A stretch of DNA of 26,974 bases from Coleofasciculus chthonoplastes F2-STO-03 (lineage in GTDB: Bacteria > Cyanobacteriota > Cyanobacteriia > Cyanobacteriales > Coleofasciculaceae): positions 1 through 26,974 of the forward strand of contig JAVJWO010000124.1 of assembly GCA_040222015.1 (NCBI GenBank), written 5' to 3'. The position numbers and the translations under genes are program-made. Below, one piece after another: positions 12,809-23,013 of this stretch (its first letter is position 1; each line of letters opens with the position of its first letter). Below the pieces are notes generated by a model. The model was not told the DNA's origin, did no database searches, and worked only from the letters and a program-made list of their open reading frames with translations.

Positions 12809-14827
12809 ATGGCAAAGCAAATTATTATTGCAGAGCAATATCGGCTGGCTGCTGTCTTTTCAGAAGATCAAATCCAAGAACTTGTCGTTGCCACGGGCAG
12901 CCACCAAGTAGGTGATATTTATCTCGGCATTGTCGAAAACGTTTTACCAGGCATTGATGCCGCATTCGTCAATATCGGTGATGCCGAACGCAATGGATTT
13001 ATTCATGTCACCGACTTGGGTCCTTTGCGACTTAAACGTCGCTCTGGGGCGATTACGGAACTGCTCACCCCGCAGCAAAAAGTCTTAGTCCAAGTGATGA
13101 AGGAGCCGACGGGTAATAAAGGTCCTCGGCTGACCGGAAATATCAGCTTACCGGGTCGTTATCTGGTGCTGATGCCTTATGGACGAGGGGTTAATTTATC
13201 CCGACGGATAAAGAACGAAAACGAACGTAATCGCCTCAGAGCCTTGGCTGTGCTGATTAAACCCGCTGGGATGGGATTATTGGTTCGCACAGAAGCCGAG
13301 GGCAGAGCGGAAGAAGCTGTAATGGAGGATTTGGAGGCGCTGCAACGCCAGTGGGAAGCCATCCAGCAGGAGGCAACTTCGACCAGAGCGCCGGCTCTAC
13401 TCAATCGCGATGATGATTTTATCCAACGAGTCCTCCGCGATATGTACACAGCGGATGTGAATCGGATTGTGGTTGATTCCAATACTGGGGTCAAACGGGT
13501 AAAACAGCAGTTAGTAAGCTGGAGTGGCGGTCGATCACCGGAAGGGGTTTTAATTGACCATCACCGCGATCGCCTCTCAATTCTCGATTATTTCCGAATT
13601 AATGCGGCGATTCGAGAAGCCTTAAAGCCACGAGTCGATCTGCCATCGGGAGGCTATATTATTATCCAACCGACGGAAGCCCTAACCGTTATTGATGTAA
13701 ACTCCGGTTCCTTTACCCGTTCCGCCACGGCGCGAGAAACCGTCCTCTGGACTAACTGTGAAGCCGCGACGGAAATCGCCCGCCAATTGCGCCTACGTAA
13801 TATTGCTGGCGTAATCATCGTGGACTTTATCGATATGGACTCGCGGCGTGACCAATTACAAGTTCTGGAACATTTCAACAAAGCGTTGAAAATGGACAAA
13901 GCCAGACCCCAAATCGCCCAATTGTCAGAACTGGGGTTAGTCGAACTCACCCGCAAGCGCCAAGGTCAAAATATTTACGAATTATTTGGTCGCACTTGTC
14001 CAAGCTGTGGTGGATTGGGACATCTGGTGCATCTTCCCGGTGAGCCAGAACCTCAAGTGCAGCAAGAGCCAGAGCCTATTTCTCGCGTTGAAATCCCAGA
14101 AACCTCTGATCTTCCAGAACCCCTGGATATCCCTGGCTTTAATGAACCGGATGAACTTGAACTTAATCATCCGAGTTATCAAGAACGGGGAATCCCCAAT
14201 GGCACTAATCGCCGCCGTCGCCGTCGCCGCCTGGAGGATGTAATCTCCAAGGATGAACCTGTAGCCAAGAGCAATGTTCGCCCAATTACCCTGTCCCAAC
14301 GTTCCTCTGATGTGAGTGAAGACGTAGAGGGGATGAGGCGCGATACGACATCTGTTGAACGTCCCATCGTGTCAGACTCCAGTGAACGAGTGGGCAAACC
14401 CCAGCTCATTCGGTCGGTGGTAGAGATGGAACCGCCGGAAGTTATTCAGGTTGAGATGACGCCGGAAGAACAGGATGTTTATGCCTTGATGGGTATTTCA
14501 CCATTAGTGCGGTTAGATAAGGAGATTAGAAATCCCCGATCAGTTATGGTTTCGGTGGTGCTTCCTGGAGAAGCTGAATCGGGTTCTTCTGACAATGACA
14601 CCACTGACAATGACACCACTGACGATTCATGGGAGGATACGTCTCACCCATCAGAGGAGTCAGACTCAGAAGAGAGTTCAGACAAGGTACTAGTTACTTC
14701 TTCGGGAGAAGCCGCTGATGTTGATTTAGAATCATCGGCTGATTCAACCTCAACCAGCGAATCGGAAACAAAACCGCCTTTGATTCGTCGTCGTCGTCGC
14801 CGTTCTTCAGCAATGGAGAATGAGTGA
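12809..14827 (+). CDS. rne: Ribonuclease E
   Basis: S1 domain (LPGIDAAFVNIG), KEPTGNKGPRLT, TEALTVIDVNSG, GVIIVDFIDM, Zn-link CPSC, and the C-terminal RRRRRRSSA motif characteristic of cyanobacterial RNase E. Confidence 0.97.
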   Translation: MAKQIIIAEQYRLAAVFSEDQIQELVVATGSHQVGDIYLGIVENVLPGIDAAFVNIGDAERNGFIHVTDLGPLRLKRRSGAITELLTPQQKVLVQVMKEPTGNKGPRLTGNISLPGRYLVLMPYGRGVNLSRRIKNENERNRLRALAVLIKPAGMGLLVRTEAEGRAEEAVMEDLEALQRQWEAIQQEATSTRAPALLNRDDDFIQRVLRDMYTADVNRIVVDSNTGVKRVKQQLVSWSGGRSPEGVLIDHHRDRLSILDYFRINAAIREALKPRVDLPSGGYIIIQPTEALTVIDVNSGSFTRSATARETVLWTNCEAATEIARQLRLRNIAGVIIVDFIDMDSRRDQLQVLEHFNKALKMDKARPQIAQLSELGLVELTRKRQGQNIYELFGRTCPSCGGLGHLVHLPGEPEPQVQQEPEPISRVEIPETSDLPEPLDIPGFNEPDELELNHPSYQERGIPNGTNRRRRRRRLEDVISKDEPVAKSNVRPITLSQRSSDVSEDVEGMRRDTTSVERPIVSDSSERVGKPQLIRSVVEMEPPEVIQVEMTPEEQDVYALMGISPLVRLDKEIRNPRSVMVSVVLPGEAESGSSDNDTTDNDTTDDSWEDTSHPSEESDSEESSDKVLVTSSGEAADVDLESSADSTSTSESETKPPLIRRRRRRSSAMENE

Positions 14828-16840: not shown

Positions 16841-17704
16841 ATGTCAATTTCAATTGCCCATCTTGGACCACCAGGGACTTACGCGGAAGCGGCAGCATTA
16901 GCTTACTGTCGCACTCTTACCCGTGAAAGTGATTCAAAACCCTCCTTATGTCCTTATCCCAGCATTGCCCAAACTCTGCACGCCGTCGCCAAAGGGCAAG
17001 CGGATTTGGCGGTGGTGCCTGTAGAAAATTCCATTGAAGGCAGTGTCACGATTACATTGGATACTTTGTGGCAACTCGATCAACTGCAAATTCAACAGGC
17101 ATTGGTTTTGCCAATCCAACATGCTCTGCTGTCACGGGCATCTCGTCTTCAGGCAATTCAAACAGTTTATTCTCATCCTCAAGCCTTAGCCCAATGTCAA
17201 GGGTGGCTGGAGAAGTGTCTGCCCTCGGTACAACTTGTAGCAACAAACTCAACCACAGAAGCCTTACAGCATCTGGATACCGACTATACGGCAGGCGTGA
17301 TCGCTTCCCAACGGGCGGCGATGCTTTATCAATTACCTATCCTGGCGGCGGCTATCAATGATTATCCAGACAACTGTACTCGTTTTTGGATTGTGGGTCA
17401 GCAATCGTCTCCTGGGGGTAGTCATACCTCCCTGGGTTTTAGCACGCCCGCCAATGTACCGGGCGCCTTAGTTAAACCCCTACAAGCCTTTGCCCAGCGA
17501 GAGATTAACCTGAGTCGGATTGAGTCTCGCCCGACGAAGCGATCGCTGGGTGAGTATCTTTTCTTTATTGATTTAGAAGCCGATGCCTCTACACCGTTGG
17601 TGCAAGAGGCACTCTCAGAAGCTGCCTCTCATACAGAAATTCTGAAAATTTTTGGCAGCTACAGCGTCATACCCATTGATTCAACCGCGCTGATTGAGAA
17701 TTAA
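16841..17704 (+). CDS. pheA: Prephenate dehydratase
   Basis: IAHLGPPGTYAE, VVPVENSIEGSV, YSHPQALAQC, NCTRFW, and ACT domain INLSRIESRP..LGEYLFFID. Confidence 0.96.
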   Translation: MSISIAHLGPPGTYAEAAALAYCRTLTRESDSKPSLCPYPSIAQTLHAVAKGQADLAVVPVENSIEGSVTITLDTLWQLDQLQIQQALVLPIQHALLSRASRLQAIQTVYSHPQALAQCQGWLEKCLPSVQLVATNSTTEALQHLDTDYTAGVIASQRAAMLYQLPILAAAINDYPDNCTRFWIVGQQSSPGGSHTSLGFSTPANVPGALVKPLQAFAQREINLSRIESRPTKRSLGEYLFFIDLEADASTPLVQEALSEAASHTEILKIFGSYSVIPIDSTALIEN

Positions 17705-17827
17705 GCTTAACGTATCACGGAAGTCCCACCCTCAATAGGCGGATTTTCGTAGCCGTCAGGAAAGAATGACGCCTATAGGGTGGGGATAGGCAGCGGATTG
17801 ACGGAGGTACGGAATCAATCAATAGAT

Positions 17828-17959
17828 TTATTTGACTGGCAATCTATCTATCCAGTCTTCAATGAGCTGAGTGACAGTTTTTTCTTTCTCTTGGGCATAA
17901 CCCTTGAGTTTTTTCATTCGCTTTTCAGATAACCTTACATGGAGGTTTTGGGTTTTCAT
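17828..17959 (-). CDS. Small ribbon-helix-helix (CopG/Arc-like) DNA-binding protein, 43 aa
   Basis: MKTQNLHVRLSEKRMKKLKGYAQEKEKTVTQLIEDWIDRLPVK*: alternating beta strand (NLHVRL), helix A (KKLKGYAQ), turn, helix B (TVTQLIEDWID). Below the ORF-track size cutoff. Confidence 0.8.
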   Translation of the reverse strand: MKTQNLHVRLSEKRMKKLKGYAQEKEKTVTQLIEDWIDRLPVK

Positions 17960-17962
17960 CGC

Positions 17963-17992
17963 GTGTTGACAATTGCAACACAAATATACTAT
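17963..17992 (+). promoter_or_regulatory. Palindromic operator overlapping a rightward promoter
   Basis: GTGTTG-acaattg-CAACAC (17963-17981) overlaps TTGACA (17966-71). TACTAT lies at 17987-92, a non-optimal 15 bp spacing. Confidence 0.55.
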
Positions 17993-18011
17993 CGTGAATT
18001 TGGTTGCTAAC

Positions 18012-18329
18012 CCAACTCTAGCGTATGGACATCAGACAGGCTAACTTCAAAGTAGCAATAAGATGCTGGTCGCTCCAAACATCGCAGCTAGGGAAAGAAC
18101 ATGACCACTGGTTCGCACAGGTTACGCCCTGCGGTAAAAGATAAACCAAGCCATGTTGTACAAGTAAAAATCTGCCTGTGGAAGACGGGCGGCTGCCTGT
18201 TGACGCTGAGTAAGACCATCACCAGGTTGAGTTCTGGACTTTCAAACGAGAAAGTACCTAACGTGGCATCGGCGAATGAAACGGGAAATCCTGAAGACGA
18301 ATAAAACCGTCCTTGTCTAGTTGAGTTGG
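18012..18329 (+). ncRNA. Structured RNA resembling an isolated group IIB intron domain I
   Basis: Nested helices with many G-U pairs: CCAACTC/GAGTTGG closing stem; GCTGGT/ACCAAGC; ATCGC-[AGCT bulge]-AGGG/CCCT-GCGGT; TGACC/GGTTA; CTGCCTGT/ACGGGCGG; CCTGTT/AACGGG; CGCTGA/TCGGCG; CCAG/CTGG; ACTTTC/GAAAGT. The intron assignment rests on recalled motif order, not on a search. Confidence 0.65.
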
Positions 18330-18363
18330 AAGCCCCAACTTCAACGAAGCAAGTTGGGGTACT

Positions 18364-19005
18364 TCACTTAAATGCATCTTTAAGGACTGTACGGGCAGCC
18401 AAATGATTGCGCGTGGAGGTAAGTATTTCCGCTTCGCGTTCCAAACGGGCTGCTGTATCCTGCATTTCTAACAACGCTTGTTGTTCTGAGGCGACGCCGT
18501 AAAGATTGCCCGCTACCCAATACGATAATTCTAAGGGAAGGTCTGGCAAGTCTTCGGGCAGCTCAATTTTCTGATCAGTCAGCTTGGCAGAAAGATGAAC
18601 GACATCTCGCAGCAATTGTTCAACGGATGTGGAAATTTCTTTTAAGTCTTTTTGTGAGGGTTGATCCTCTATCCATTCCACCAATCCGACACGATAGGGT
18701 TTTTCTCGGACGTATTCTAAAACTCGAAATCGTTGCTGACCCAGGGTTAAGACTTTCATCCGATCATCAGGCAGACGCTGGAAATGTATGATTTCAGCGC
18801 AGCAGCCAACGGCTGCGGGTTGACCTTGCACCGGGTCCCACATTAGTACCCCAAAACGCCGATCGCTCTCCAAAATCGTGTTCATCAGGATACGATAGCG
18901 AAATTCAAAGATATGGAGGGGCAGAGGACGTCCCGGAAATAGAACCACTTCTGGCAGTGGAAACAAAGGAAGTTCTCTAACAGCAATTGAGGAAGAGGAT
19001 GCCAT
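18364..19005 (-). CDS. LON peptidase substrate-binding (N-terminal) domain protein
   Basis: VRELPLFPLPEVVLFPGRPLPLHIFEFRYRI, VGCCAEI, LGQQRFRV; no ATPase or protease domain. Confidence 0.92.
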   Translation of the reverse strand: MASSSSIAVRELPLFPLPEVVLFPGRPLPLHIFEFRYRILMNTILESDRRFGVLMWDPVQGQPAAVGCCAEIIHFQRLPDDRMKVLTLGQQRFRVLEYVREKPYRVGLVEWIEDQPSQKDLKEISTSVEQLLRDVVHLSAKLTDQKIELPEDLPDLPLELSYWVAGNLYGVASEQQALLEMQDTAARLEREAEILTSTRNHLAARTVLKDAFK

Positions 19006-19188: not shown

Positions 19189-19506
19189 CTATAACTTCAC
19201 TTCAATATCCACACCAGCCGGTAAATCCAGTTTCATCAGGGCGTCAATGGTTTTGGACGATGGCTGATAAATGTCAATAAGTCGCCGATGAGTACGGGTT
19301 TCAAAATGTTCCCGCGAATCCTTATCAACGTGGGGCGATCGCAAGACACAATAAATACGACGTTTGGTCGGTAAGGGAATTGGACCGACGGCGGCAGCAT
19401 TGGTGCGATTTGCTGTATCCACAATCTTCTCGCATGAAGTGTCTAGTAATCGCCGATCAAATGCTTTAAGACGAATCCGAATTTTTTGCTGCTGAATCGT
19501 TGCCAT
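19189..19506 (-). CDS. rpsJ: 30S ribosomal protein S10
   Basis: [38 protein letters not shown]; start reassigned to ATG 19506. Confidence 0.98.
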
Positions 19507-19628
19507 TTTTTTGAGTTGTCTAGGTTCTGAAATAATTAGGAGTTGTGAAGTGTTGAGTGTTGAATGAATGTTCCCGAACTCAGAACTCAACACTCAGAAT
19601 TCATAACGTTTTGCCAACACAGAGAATA

Positions 19629-19662
19629 AGGAGCAGAGAACAGCATCAGCCTCTCTGCTCCT
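19629..19662. other. 11 bp stem-loop in the tufA-rpsJ spacer
   Basis: AGGAGCAGAGA-12 nt-TCTCTGCTCCT. There is no U-tract, so an mRNA stability or processing role is more likely than termination. Confidence 0.5.
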
Positions 19663-19684
19663 ACTCTTTGGAGTGAGAACAGTG

Positions 19685-20914
19685 CTACTTGAGGATTTTG
19701 GAGACAACACCTGCACCGATGGTGCGACCGCCTTCGCGAATGGCAAAGCGCATTCCTTGTTCAATCGCGATCGGGTTGATTAACTCCACAGTCATTTTTA
19801 CTCGGTCTCCCGGCATAACCATTTCCACATTGCTACCATCATCAGCGGTGTAGGAATTAATTGTTCCCGTCACATCGGTGGTACGAACGTAGAACTGAGG
19901 GCGATAACCGGAAAAGAACGGAGTATGACGTCCTCCTTCTTCTTTTTTGAGGACATAGACTTCCGACTCAAACTGAGTATGAGGAGTGATAGAACCGGGC
20001 TTGGCAATTACCATTCCCCGCTCAATATCTTTCTTCTCAACACCTCGGAGCAGAATTCCGGCATTGTCACCCGCCATCCCTTCATCGAGACTCTTCTTAA
20101 ACATCTCAATGCCAGTGACGGTTTTCTTGACCGTATCCCGGAGTCCAACTAGCTCAACTTCGTCGCCAATCTTGACTTTACCGCGCTCGATCCGACCCGT
20201 GGCGACTGTCCCCCGACCGGTAATGGTGAAGACGTCTTCGACTGCCATCAGGAAGGGCTTATCCACGTCCCGTTCTGGGGTAGGAATGTAAGCATCGACC
20301 TCATCCATTAACGCATAGATCTGATCAACCCACTCATCATCACCCTTCTTAAGGTTTGGGTTAGAGGTAAGAGAATCAAGCGCCTTTAACGCCGAACCTG
20401 CCACGATGGGAATATTATCTCCATCGAATTCATAATCACTGAGGAGTTCGCGGACTTCCAGTTCCACCAATTCCAGTAATTCTTCATCGTCCACCTGGTC
20501 TTTCTTATTCAAAAAGACCACCAAGTTGGGGACGCCTACCTGCTTGGCAAGGAGGATATGTTCCCGTGTTTGCGGCATCGGACCGTCAGCGGCGGAAACT
20601 ACCAGGATCGCCCCATCCATTTGAGCCGCACCCGTGATCATGTTTTTCACGTAGTCAGCGTGTCCTGGGCAATCAACGTGAGCGTAGTGGCGATTCGCCG
20701 TTTCATACTCAACGTGAGCGGTGTTAATGGTAATCCCCCGCGCCTTTTCCTCTGGTGCCGCATCAATGTCTTCGTACTTCTTGGCGGTTGCTTGACCTGA
20801 TGCAGCCAGAGTCATGGTAATGGCAGCCGTCAACGTTGTTTTGCCGTGGTCTACGTGACCAATTGTGCCAATGTTGACGTGGGGTTTAGTCCTTTCAAAC
20901 TTTGAGCGTGCCAT
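19685..20914 (-). CDS. tufA: Elongation factor Tu
   Basis: [47 protein letters not shown]. Confidence 0.99.
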
Positions 20915-20937
20915 GAATTACGTTTTCCTTTTCTTAG

Positions 20938-23013
20938 TTATGCGTTCCCTTTGCTCTTAGCAATGATAGCTTCAGCCACGTTACGAGGCACTTCATCATA
21001 GTTGCTAAACTCCATTGAGAAGATACCTCGACCTTGGGTTTTTGACCGTATATCCGTAGCATAACCAAACATCTCGGCTAATGGAACTTTAGCAGAAACT
21101 TTGGCAATACCTTCGTCGGTACCCATCCCTTCGATTTGACCACGGCGGGAGTTGAGATCGCCCATGACATCTCCGAGAAAGTCTTCAGGCACTTCAACTT
21201 CCACTTTCATCATAGGCTCGAGTAACACTGGTGCAGCCTTCGTTACGCCGTTTTTAATTGCTATCGAACCAGCAATTTTGAACGCCATTTCCGAAGAGTC
21301 AACATCGTGGTACGAACCATCAACTAACGTGGCTTTGACATCAATGAGGGGATACCCAGCTAGGATACCCGATTCGCAGGCTTCTTTCATACCCTGCTCA
21401 GCCGGGGAAATAAATTCTCTCGGTACGGAACCACCAACAATCTTGGAGACAAATTCAAACCCACTACCGGTTTCACCTGGCTCCAATTCAATGACGACAT
21501 GACCGTACTGACCTTTACCGCCACTTTGACGGATGAACTTGCCTTCAGCTTGCACGGATTTGCGGATGGTTTCTCGGTAAGCCACCTGAGGGGCACCCAC
21601 ATTGGCTTCGACTTTGAACTCCCGCAGCATCCGATCAACCAGAATTTCCAGGTGAAGTTCACCCATTCCCGCAATCACGGTTTGATTGGTTTCTGGGTCG
21701 ATACTGACCCGGAATGTCGGATCTTCTTCCGATAAGGATTGGAGTGCTTTGGAAAGCTTCTCCATATCCTGCTTGGTTTTGGGTTCTACGGCTACCGAAA
21801 TCACCGGCTCTGGAATATAAAGCGATTCCAAAATAATCGGCGATTCTTCGTCACAAATTGTATCACCCGTTGTCGTTTGCTTGAGACCAATTGCCGCACC
21901 CAGATCGCCAGCTCGTAGCTCATCGACCTCAATCCGTTCGTTGGATTTCAAAATAATCAGCCGGGAGATACGCTCCTTCTGATCTTTGGTGGAGTTGAGA
22001 ATATAGCTACCTTTTCGCAGAATTCCGGAGTAGACCCGCATGAAGGTTAAACGACCATAAGGGTCTGACATGATTTTAAATGCCAGCGCCGATAGGGGAG
22101 CTTCATCTTTTGCTGGTCGGTTGTCCGTTGTCCCATCTGGCAATAGTCCCTGAATTGGCGGAACTTCCTGCGGAGAGGGTAGATAATCCACCACTCCATC
22201 AAGGAGTAACTGTACTCCTCTATTTTTGAAGGCTGAACCACACAGCACCGGCACAATCGTACCGGCAATCGTACCTTTACGCAGGGCAGAGCGAATTTCG
22301 GCTTCGGTGAGTTCTTCTTCTGCCAGATATTTTTCTATAAGCGCTTCATCAGTCTCAGCTACAGCTTCGATCAGCTTAACTCGGTACTCTTGGGCTAGCT
22401 CTTGAACCTTTTCCGGGATTTCGGTGTCTTGCATATCCGTACCCAGGTCATTGGTATAAATCCGGGCACGCATTTGCACAAGATCGACAATCCCGTGGAA
22501 ATCACTTTCACTGCCGATGGGAATTTGGATTGCCACCGCATTGGTACGCATCCGATCGCGGAGTTGTTCATATACTTTGAAAAAGTTAGCACCCGTGCGA
22601 TCCATCTTGTTGACAAAGGCAATCCTCGGCACCTTGTAGCGATCTGCTTGCCGCCACACGGTTTCCGATTGGGGCTGGACACCTCCCACTGAGCAGAACA
22701 CAGCAATTACACCATCTAAAACCCGCATCGAACGCTCAACTTCAATCGTGAAGTCTACGTGACCCGGTGTATCAATGATGTTAATCCGGTGATCCAGCCA
22801 GTTCGTGCTGATGGCAGCAGCAGTAATTGTAATTCCCCGTTCCCGCTCTTGCTCCATCCAGTCGGTCACGGCTGTCCCTTCATGGACTTCGCCTAGTTTA
22901 TGAACGATTCCTGAGTAAAACAGGATTCGTTCTGTTGTTGTTGTCTTGCCCGCATCAATGTGGGCGGCAATCCCGATATTGCGTATTTTCTCAAGCGGGA
23001 TGGTACGTGCCAC
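20938..23013 (-). CDS. fusA: Elongation factor G
   Basis: [44 protein letters not shown]. Confidence 0.99.

Follow-up and report, generated by a model that had tools for sequence, protein, structure and literature searches.

A non-autonomous IS200/IS605-family element of Coleofasciculus chthonoplastes F2-STO-03 with an arc-like gene and a probable omega-RNA-like guide RNA

The window considered in this study is the whole contig JAVJWO010000124.1 (26,974 nucleotides (nt); here contig C124) of Coleofasciculus chthonoplastes F2-STO-03, a cyanobacterium whose genome assembly (GCA_040222015.1) comprises 7.7 Mb in 219 contigs. In this window, the entire gap between pheA and a gene encoding a Lon N-terminal-domain protein was found to be occupied by a 657-nt insert, at positions 17711 to 18367. 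Our reading, to which we give a probability of about 0.7, is that this insert is a hitch-hiking, non-autonomous element of the IS200/IS605 family of insertion sequences (IS), which has lost tnpB and tnpA and carries an arc-like gene for a small ribbon-helix-helix (RHH) protein together with an omega-RNA-like guide RNA. The evidence that carries this reading comprises the exact and family-typical ends of the insert, its copies at many other loci, and a conserved, covarying RNA whose 3′ part matches tnpB 3′ ends of the F2-STO-03 genome. The insert had previously been described from the sequence alone (hereafter, the original prediction) as an IS605-ended mini-element whose RNA cargo was a stand-alone group II intron domain I; the element itself was confirmed, and the intron identity of its cargo was not.

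Ends, insertion site and copies of the element

The element, its ends and its flanks are laid out as follows.

17711..18367, plus strand: whole non-autonomous IS200/IS605-family element, 657 nt, delimited by flank joints, empty sites in DNA and the ends of copies
17707..17710, plus strand: TTAA, a flank resembling a target or transposon-adjacent motif, directly 5′ of the element and present in the empty sites of congeners
17725..17785, plus strand: left-end subterminal hairpin, arms 17725-17741 and 17770-17785 (inverted repeat I1/I5)
17796..17820, plus strand: second left-end hairpin, GATTGA...TCAATC, with a conserved loop (inverted repeat I12)
18333..18359, plus strand: right-end subterminal hairpin with perfect 9-nt arms, 18333-18341 and 18351-18359 (inverted repeat I4)
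16841-17704, plus strand: pheA, with PDT and ACT domains (Pfam)
18364-19005, minus strand: gene for the Lon N-terminal-domain protein (open reading frame (ORF) and Pfam)

In contigs from the public RNA-library runs X3 and X5, position 17710 was seen to be followed directly by position 18368, and a contig of a third run (X2) joins 17710 to 18370, as a two-letter TC variant. The same uninterrupted site, ...GCTTAA followed by TTAAATGC..., was found as DNA in three of the eight other genomes of the genus (G001, G004 and G005); among the remaining congeners, two present unrelated spacers, and the right flank could not be located in a further one. Because the element-free junction exists as DNA in congeners, the 657-nt skip in the RNA-library contigs corresponds to an empty site and not to splicing. 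The ends of the element are exact, at 17711 and 18367, and the insertion took place after TTAA without target duplication. The interval of 17711-18367 given by the original prediction therefore turned out, from the flank joints and the congener empty sites, to delimit exactly one mobile element, within which the predicted succession of a left hairpin, a 43-amino-acid (aa) ORF, an operator and promoter region, a folded RNA and a right hairpin was recovered at the positions given, up to the terminal TCAC at 18367, which is seen in the sequence.

Both ends present subterminal imperfect hairpins without terminal inverted repeats, and the left and right ends are dissimilar. The stretch 17707-17822 is 94% identical to a stretch of contig C117 that constitutes the left end of a tnpB-bearing IS, and which continues there into a Y1-transposase gene remnant and a 456-aa tnpB. 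In addition, the full tnpB elements of contigs C40, C61 and C195 begin with the left junction TTAA/C..., contain a similar hairpin and end in ...GTAGTTCAC. The right end of the element is matched, alongside the 3′ ends of tnpB genes, by the covariance model R1 described in the next section, and its hairpin displays compensatory changes among copies (CCCCAAC/GTTGGGG replaced by CTCCGGC/GCCGGAG). By its transposon ends the element is a member of the IS200/IS605 family, and it is mobile. Regarding the transposition genes, the genome yielded 57 tblastn pieces of TnpB spread over many contigs, none of them on the contig of the element, and 17 matches to the Y1 transposase (16 of them above the Pfam cut-off, and six spanning nearly the full domain without stops), again with no match on that contig; moreover, the ORF list contained no long ORF and no reverse transcriptase (RT) or maturase ORF in or beside the insert. 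The description of an IS605-ended, protein-poor mobile mini-element devoid of tnpA, tnpB and RT was borne out by these searches, together with the homology of the ends, the empty sites and the copies reported below.

A BLAST search of 61 genomes, including that of F2-STO-03, returned matches in 34. In an alignment of 12 near-complete copies, taken together with their flanks from other genomes, homology was found to end abruptly at both sides, with the left limit at the base following a TTAA or TTAG flank in 11 of them (the copy at locus L023 differs) and the right limit at ...GTACTTCAC. The original prediction had proposed that related genomes be searched for copies with the same boundaries at different loci, and such copies do exist, since 41 distinct RNA copies were recovered at other loci of cyanobacterial genomes with sharp ends (...TTAA or ...TTAG, then C...GTACTTCAC). 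In one genome of another family (G106), 11 different loci are each occupied by a near-identical copy, with the same sharp ends and a TTAA or TTAG flank in all 11. Among the 41 distinct RNA copies, for which the loci were fetched, 14 have a full arc gene ahead of the RNA and 27 do not, two of the latter retaining a broken arc remnant; therefore, the RNA, rather than arc, is the constant cargo. No tnpB was detected inside the element in any of the 41 (tblastn of four TnpB proteins against all fetched loci). The RNA is preserved over several cyanobacterial families at 66-86% identity, and the covariance model of its 5′ part, R2, matches 9 of 151 class-level cyanobacterial genomes, F2-STO-03 included. 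Within the latter genome, a second and arc-less copy of the RNA element was found on the minus strand of contig C192 (C192:12699-13146), besides several partial 3′ copies, and no blastn match to the element was obtained in the plasmid collection.

Some additional observations were made on these loci. The second copy of F2-STO-03 is flanked by TTTTAA/C... on one side and closes with ...GGGTAGTTCAC on the other, and thus the arc-less and arc-bearing forms share one genome. In the orthologous empty site of genome G007 (L061), 15 nt are duplicated in tandem (GAGAATTAAGCTTA...) at precisely the point of insertion, which could be a footprint or an unrelated slip. The orthologous site of G002 (L062) retains a 153-nt relic formed by the left end together with the 3′ end of arc as far as ...CAGTCTTCAA, fused directly to the right flank TTAAATGC, and it looks like the product of a one-sided deletion or of an aberrant excision via a TTCAA inside arc. 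In G106, one of the 11 RNA elements (L101, on contig C31 of that genome) lies upstream of a tnpB of 55% identity to the C117 type, at a distance of ~420 nt, an arrangement that could be a tandem insertion at the target motif of the next IS. As judged by eye from the alignment, the stem of the second left-end hairpin varies with compensation (TTGA/TCAA, AAAC/GTTT, CTGAC/GTCAG) around a constant loop, CGGAGGNACGGA; the tnpB-bearing IS of C117 has this hairpin in its left end too, and the hairpin possibly acts as a terminator for arc or tnpA, or as a TnpA contact. Regarding the wider neighbourhood, the genes at 12809-14827 and 19189-23013 look like housekeeping genes in translations read by eye with no family search, and were labelled in this way as a 672-aa RNase E/G-like protein followed by rpsJ, tuf and fusA, on the minus strand.

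The RNA cargo and its relation to the 3′ ends of tnpB genes

The RNA region extends over ~365 nt of the plus strand, of which ~170 nt form a 5′ part, beginning with GGTTGC... at ~18002, and ~195 nt a 3′ part. Its features are listed below.

18002..18171, plus strand: 5′ domain of the RNA, helices 1-9, from covariation in an alignment of 21 copies (A3)
18172..18192, plus strand: helix 10, a hairpin with a GGAAG loop, the first part common to tnpB-linked RNAs
18199..18367, plus strand: omega-RNA-like scaffold and right end, from an alignment of 21 copies (A2) and model R1
18368..18387, plus strand: predicted guide segment (flank read-through), proposed from the build of TnpB omega-RNAs and matching the empty site next to TTAA

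For the 3′ part of the RNA, a covariance model (R1) was prepared exclusively from tnpB-less copies; a second model, R2, represents the 5′ part. In the genome of F2-STO-03, R1 gave 16 matches at E <= 1. Seven of these were tnpB-less copies, two of which lie at contig ends and are probably one locus, and each of the other nine coincided with the 3′ end of a tnpB ORF or lay immediately beyond it, on the same strand (contigs C61, C40, C217, C96, C195, C58, C204, C47 and C189). With the filters off, R1 also matched the 3′ end of an arc-linked tnpB at locus L035 (2806-2902) with 44.5 bits, and this match crosses the tnpB stop codon and reaches the terminal ...GTAGTTCAC. In the R1 alignments, conserved single-stranded motifs succeed one another in the same order around a variable hairpin, and the loop of the right-end hairpin is the same. 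As for R2, matches of 18.4-18.9 bits were obtained in three of the four tnpB loci tested, on the same strand and ending 5 nt before the R1 match, a spacing equal to that of the window, and the fourth locus (L035) gave a 4.5-bit match in the same position. Since most of the R2 score comes from helix 10, homology to tnpB-linked RNA is held only for ~18172-18367, where we regard it as established; for helices 1-9 it is unproven, and these helices had no recognisable counterpart in tnpB-linked RNAs, in the introns of the same genome or in Rfam.

The RNA of the element and the omega-RNAs of the tnpB genes on C40, C61, C195 and C217 have in common a near-identical right-end hairpin loop, the terminal ...TTCAC and the same order of motifs, as well as R1 matches of 22-40 bits with R2 matches of 18-19 bits directly 5′ of them; the TTAA/C left junction is also shared (C40, C61 and C195). 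They differ in that the tnpB-linked RNAs overlap the tnpB reading frame, whereas the RNA of the element is free of coding constraint and has helices 1-9 in addition, which are not recognisable in the tnpB-linked RNAs. No TnpB-like stretch was recognised by eye in the three plus-strand frames of the window RNA. The TnpB proteins encoded on these four contigs share 60-62% identity with the arc-linked TnpB of L035, and that of C40 keeps the conserved acidic motifs, as read by eye. An expanded omega-RNA scaffold, which the original prediction had mentioned as the last of its options, is the best-supported reading, and the view that the cargo is a regulated and non-splicing structured RNA was likewise supported.

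The fold of this RNA is real, and it is covariation, rather than single-sequence folding, that shows it. RNAalifold applied to 16 full-length copies predicted 45 pairs, and in 24 of these both partners had changed in a compensatory way. For 18002-18196, the consensus obtained from A3 (ribosum-scored, lone pairs removed) comprised 46 pairs in 10 helices, with 91.2% of the cells paired against 81.5% in shuffled alignments and 32-42% in slid controls; 25 pairs had changed on both sides, compared with 13.6 +/- 2.2 in the shuffles, none of which (0/500) equalled the observed value. Within helix 10, six of the eight pairs change on both sides. For 18199-18367, A2 gave 32 pairs in seven helices, with 90.9% of the cells paired against 83.6% in the shuffles, and 15 pairs changed on both sides, compared with 8.3 +/- 1.4 (again 0/500 equal). 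The nested helices that had been drawn from a single sequence are in this way replaced by 10 plus 7 helices derived from covariation. The same cannot be said of the closing stem CCAACTC/GAGTTGG, proposed by the original prediction, which is not kept in the copies (59.6% of cells paired, compared with 57.2% in shuffles, 108 of 500 of which reach the observed value). In A3, G-U cells outnumber A-C cells (118 vs 22), and therefore the plus strand is favoured as the RNA.

Two side observations concern the models and the consensus fold. Weak R2 matches without an accompanying R1 match were recorded in the genome of F2-STO-03 at C216:121685-121845 (26.6 bits) and C130:88768-88922 (21.4 bits). Furthermore, an identical segment of ~30 nt (GACGCTCGAAGACTCGCTAACGCTTCGCTAT) was inserted twice in the copy at L042 (genome G026), once in each half of the RNA; both insertions fall in loops of the consensus fold and resemble a tiny nested repeat.

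The arc-like gene, its putative operator and the promoter-like sites

Ahead of the RNA, the element carries a small divergent gene and a short regulatory region with the following features.

17828..17959, minus strand: arc-like RHH gene, 43 aa (ORF, 16 intact homologues, RHH-type fold match)
17963..17981, no strand assigned: palindrome GTGTTG/CAACAC, putative Arc operator (inverted repeat I14-I16)
17966..17995, plus strand: promoter-like site for the RNA, TTGACA-18-TATCGT (pattern scan, box conserved)
17983..18010, minus strand: promoter-like site for arc, TTAGCA-16-TATATT (pattern match only)

The homologous ORFs were intact in 16 of 16 cases, 13 from tnpB-less elements and three adjoining tnpB. 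Among these homologues, the proportion of nonsynonymous differences (pN) was lower than that of synonymous differences (pS) in 120 of 120 pairs, with medians of 0.25 and 0.83, which indicates that arc is under purifying selection. At loci L028, L031 and L035, the same small protein is encoded divergently from an adjacent full tnpB. In Pfam, the window protein matched DUF6364 with E 2.3e-4 and 22 bits, under the 27.3-bit cut-off, and gave sub-threshold matches to RHH_10 and CopG_antitoxin; DUF6364 was matched by 11 of 15 members of the family, with a best E of 7.4e-7. A structural model based on a 15-sequence alignment (predicted local distance difference test score, pLDDT, 86.8) presented an extended N-terminus and two helices, at residues 12-24 and 29-38, and its best fold matches among solved structures were all RHH proteins, namely the DNA-binding domain of PutA, ParG, CopG, AtaR and Arc, with template modelling (TM) scores of 0.63-0.71. 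When the family profile was compared with solved chains, no RHH sequence match was obtained, the only two matches being chance ones to ribosomal protein L23. The product of the small gene has, according to this model, an RHH fold, and the divergent 43-aa RHH gene of the original prediction is upheld by the minus-strand ORF, the fold matches and the purifying selection.

The palindrome overlaps the plus-strand promoter-like site and adjoins the minus-strand one. Repeats occupy its columns in all of the copies aligned, with sequences that vary among copies. The promoter scan found two sites, compared with 1.1 +/- 1.1 in shuffled sequences, a chance-level count that is meaningless by itself; what counts is conservation across copies, and a TAnnAT-type box is present in the same column in all aligned copies. 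The operator and promoter region that had been predicted is thus in place, as a palindrome with back-to-back promoter-like sites and a conserved box column. Arc proteins of IS605-family transposons were found to bind and repress the arc-tnpB promoter, as demonstrated by chromatin immunoprecipitation sequencing (ChIP-seq) and reporter assays (Moon, Zedaveinyte, Wiegand and Sternberg, bioRxiv 10.64898/2026.09.24.754181), and it is by analogy with those data that the palindrome is proposed here as a putative Arc operator.

Alternative explanations, proposed mechanism and relation to known systems

The headline claim of the original prediction was that a stand-alone group II intron domain I had been captured by an IS605 element, where it could serve as a decoy for introns or as a module for trans-splicing. 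Its basis was an order of motifs regarded as intron-like, which no computation performed here bore out; in its favour, two group II introns do exist in the genome, in tandem on contig C16 (C16:29375-34211, L074), each starting with GTGCG and containing an ORF, of 542 and 546 codons, and domain V matches of 63.7 and 58.5 bits. The Infernal scan against Rfam that had been suggested gave no match in the whole window at the gathering score, and only three chance-level matches in 17600-18500 at E <= 10, none of them related to group II introns or to IS. When applied to the introns of L074, Rfam recognised them by domain V-type models only, the D1D4 models missing their domain I; Rfam is therefore a weak test for this domain, and for this reason the RNA was compared directly with these introns. 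The best blastn match between 17986-18367 and the L074 introns had an E of 0.9 over 17 nt, nhmmer gave no match at E <= 10, and neither did R2 with the filters off. Moreover, the RNA lacks GUGYG at its 5′ end, as the original prediction had itself remarked, domains V-VI are likewise unmatched, no RT accompanies it, and the homology of its 3′ half is with tnpB 3′ ends. With no similarity in any test, the domain I candidate was rejected, and the reading is refuted within the reach of sequence and structure models, which leaves it with a vanishingly small probability.

Other explanations accept the IS605-type ends and dispute the function of the RNA. The insert could be a decaying deletion relic, in which passenger DNA from a tnpB 3′ end is carried by functional ends and the RNA has no function, an idea compatible with the collinearity between the RNA and tnpB 3′ ends and with the weak fold z-scores of the single sequence; it is quite unlikely, considering that compensatory changes are seen in both halves of the RNA (5′, 25 of 46 pairs; 3′, 15 of 32), at levels that no shuffle reached, that the RNA is kept across several families and constant where arc is variable, that a promoter-like box is preserved ahead of it, and that a burst to 11 copies occurred in G106. 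It is also possible, though unlikely, that the RNA acts without TnpB, either as an Arc-controlled decoy titrating TnpB or Arc, or as a new catalytic or structural RNA of which the 5′ domain would be the active part. Such a role would suit the strong structure of the 5′ ~170 nt, which has no counterpart in tnpB-linked RNAs or Rfam, and the lack of a tnpB-linked look-alike in G106 despite its 11 copies; on the other hand, the 3′ half has the conserved single-stranded motifs and the terminal pairing found in tnpB 3′ ends, its location at the right end suits a guide RNA, and nothing points to another partner. A toxin-antitoxin-like pair, with the RHH protein as antitoxin and the RNA, or a small peptide within it, as toxin, might be suggested by the weak matches in Pfam to the CopG and antitoxin families of RHH proteins, and in PMC10691335 an RHH protein is proposed as a TnpB antitoxin in an archaeal clade. 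This pairing is highly improbable, as 27 of 41 RNA copies are without arc, which would hardly be tolerable for a toxin, the frames of the window RNA are broken into two short ORFs in different frames, and the substitution pattern is RNA-like.

Several results weigh against the preferred reading of an arc-bearing, guide-RNA element that borrows its nuclease. The fold of the single sequence is unremarkable (z = -1.5 for the plus and -2.2 for the minus strand), and the structures counted above were derived from the same alignments in which they were counted, which favours them, even if the margins are still wide. The R2 matches in tnpB loci owe their score mainly to helix 10 and its flanks, and at 18-19 bits would not reach genome-wide significance. 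In G106, where 25 TnpB zinc-ribbon matches accompany the 11 copies of the element, no tnpB-linked R1 match was found at E <= 0.1, and therefore no cognate TnpB is evident there; in another genome (G042), R1 at the same threshold gave only tnpB-less copies and one weak tnpB-linked match. Rfam returned nothing relevant on six tnpB and element loci, and because bona fide tnpB 3′ ends of this genome and its relatives were among the unmatched, it cannot decide membership in the curated omega-RNAs. Public metatranscriptome contigs from related strains cover parts of the element, of arc and of the RNA, but give no strand, ends or level, and bins without coverage are uninformative. Finally, the Pfam matches of arc lie under the curated cut-offs, and the RHH fold matches have E values of 0.4-1.2, because the protein is so small (43 residues).

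Under the preferred reading, the element would be moved by the Y1 transposase of other IS copies, acting on the two retained subterminal hairpin ends. The RNA would be transcribed from the promoter at 17966-17995 and read through 18367 into the flank; as the final base of the scaffold, 18367, is also that of the element, this read-through would supply the guide. The RNA would then load onto a TnpB produced by related IS copies, the nearest candidates being the four intact genes of the 412-aa type on C40, C61, C195 and C217, and the resulting complex would cut the vacated site, formed by TTAA and the sequence from 18368 onward, which equals the empty-site sequence of congeners. Repair of the break from the sister copy by recombination would retain the element, and in this way a protein-poor hitch-hiker might exploit the retention system that its relatives possess. 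Through the palindrome, Arc would keep both divergent promoters repressed, its own and that of the RNA, and the 5′ domain of ~170 nt, which takes the place of the tnpB reading frame, may stabilise the RNA or extend its scaffold. Transcription, Arc binding, TnpB loading and cleavage are inferred. A further reading, tentative and on balance doubtful, is that 18002-18171 is a new RNA module that makes the omega-RNA a self-sufficient selfish gene, able to outcompete the omega-RNAs of full-length IS for TnpB as a hyperparasite, or else an Arc-gated decoy that tunes TnpB. If true, it would explain why the RNA, rather than arc, is the invariant cargo, as well as the 11-copy burst.

Arc repressors in IS605 elements and stand-alone omega-RNAs were each known separately; the present element combines them, without tnpB and with an enlarged RNA. 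As in Arc-containing IS605 transposons, a small RHH gene lies inside the ends, divergent from the promoter of the tnpB side, with repeats placed over the promoter boxes; unlike in those transposons, the promoter faces an RNA of ~365 nt and not tnpB, and neither tnpA nor tnpB is present. The text of the Arc preprint (bioRxiv 10.64898/2026.09.24.754181) makes no mention of 'non-autonomous', 'PATE', 'standalone' or 'without TnpB'. Stand-alone mobile omega-RNAs acting in trans, and PATE-like elements encoding omega-RNAs, are described in PMC10691335 and bioRxiv 10.1101/2023.03.14.532601, the former also describing how TnpB omega-RNAs are built, with the flank as the guide. The present element resembles such elements in having ends without a transposase or nuclease gene, an omega-RNA that would need the TnpB of another copy, and many copies per genome, and differs from them in its own promoter or promoter-like site, in the repressor gene of 14 of the 41 copies and in a conserved and structured 5′ domain of ~170 nt that is not seen in the tnpB-linked RNAs of the same genome. 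In IStrons (bioRxiv 10.1101/2023.11.20.567912), which the original prediction cited as an analogy, a group I intron is fused to IS605 or IS607 elements; like the present element, they unite a structured RNA with IS605-type ends in a single mobile unit, but the present element contains no intron. An element combining arc and an omega-RNA without tnpB, or one with a large 5′ RNA domain, was not found in the library of papers searched, which did not extend to the bioRxiv supplements, where such loci may be listed.

The element family described here, which is present in at least nine of the 151 sampled cyanobacterial genomes and in further ones among close relatives, would be one in which the nuclease gene has been discarded and the guide RNA kept and enlarged. 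It would provide a naturally occurring system for examining whether a guide RNA can spread by itself on borrowed TnpB, and for testing whether Arc controls the supply of guide RNA rather than that of the nuclease, and its covariation-supported 5′ domain may bear on the stabilisation or loading of omega-RNAs. It also carries a practical lesson, in that, for a long and well-folded intergenic RNA lying beside IS ends, a comparison with tnpB 3′ ends should precede any appeal to other classes of RNA.

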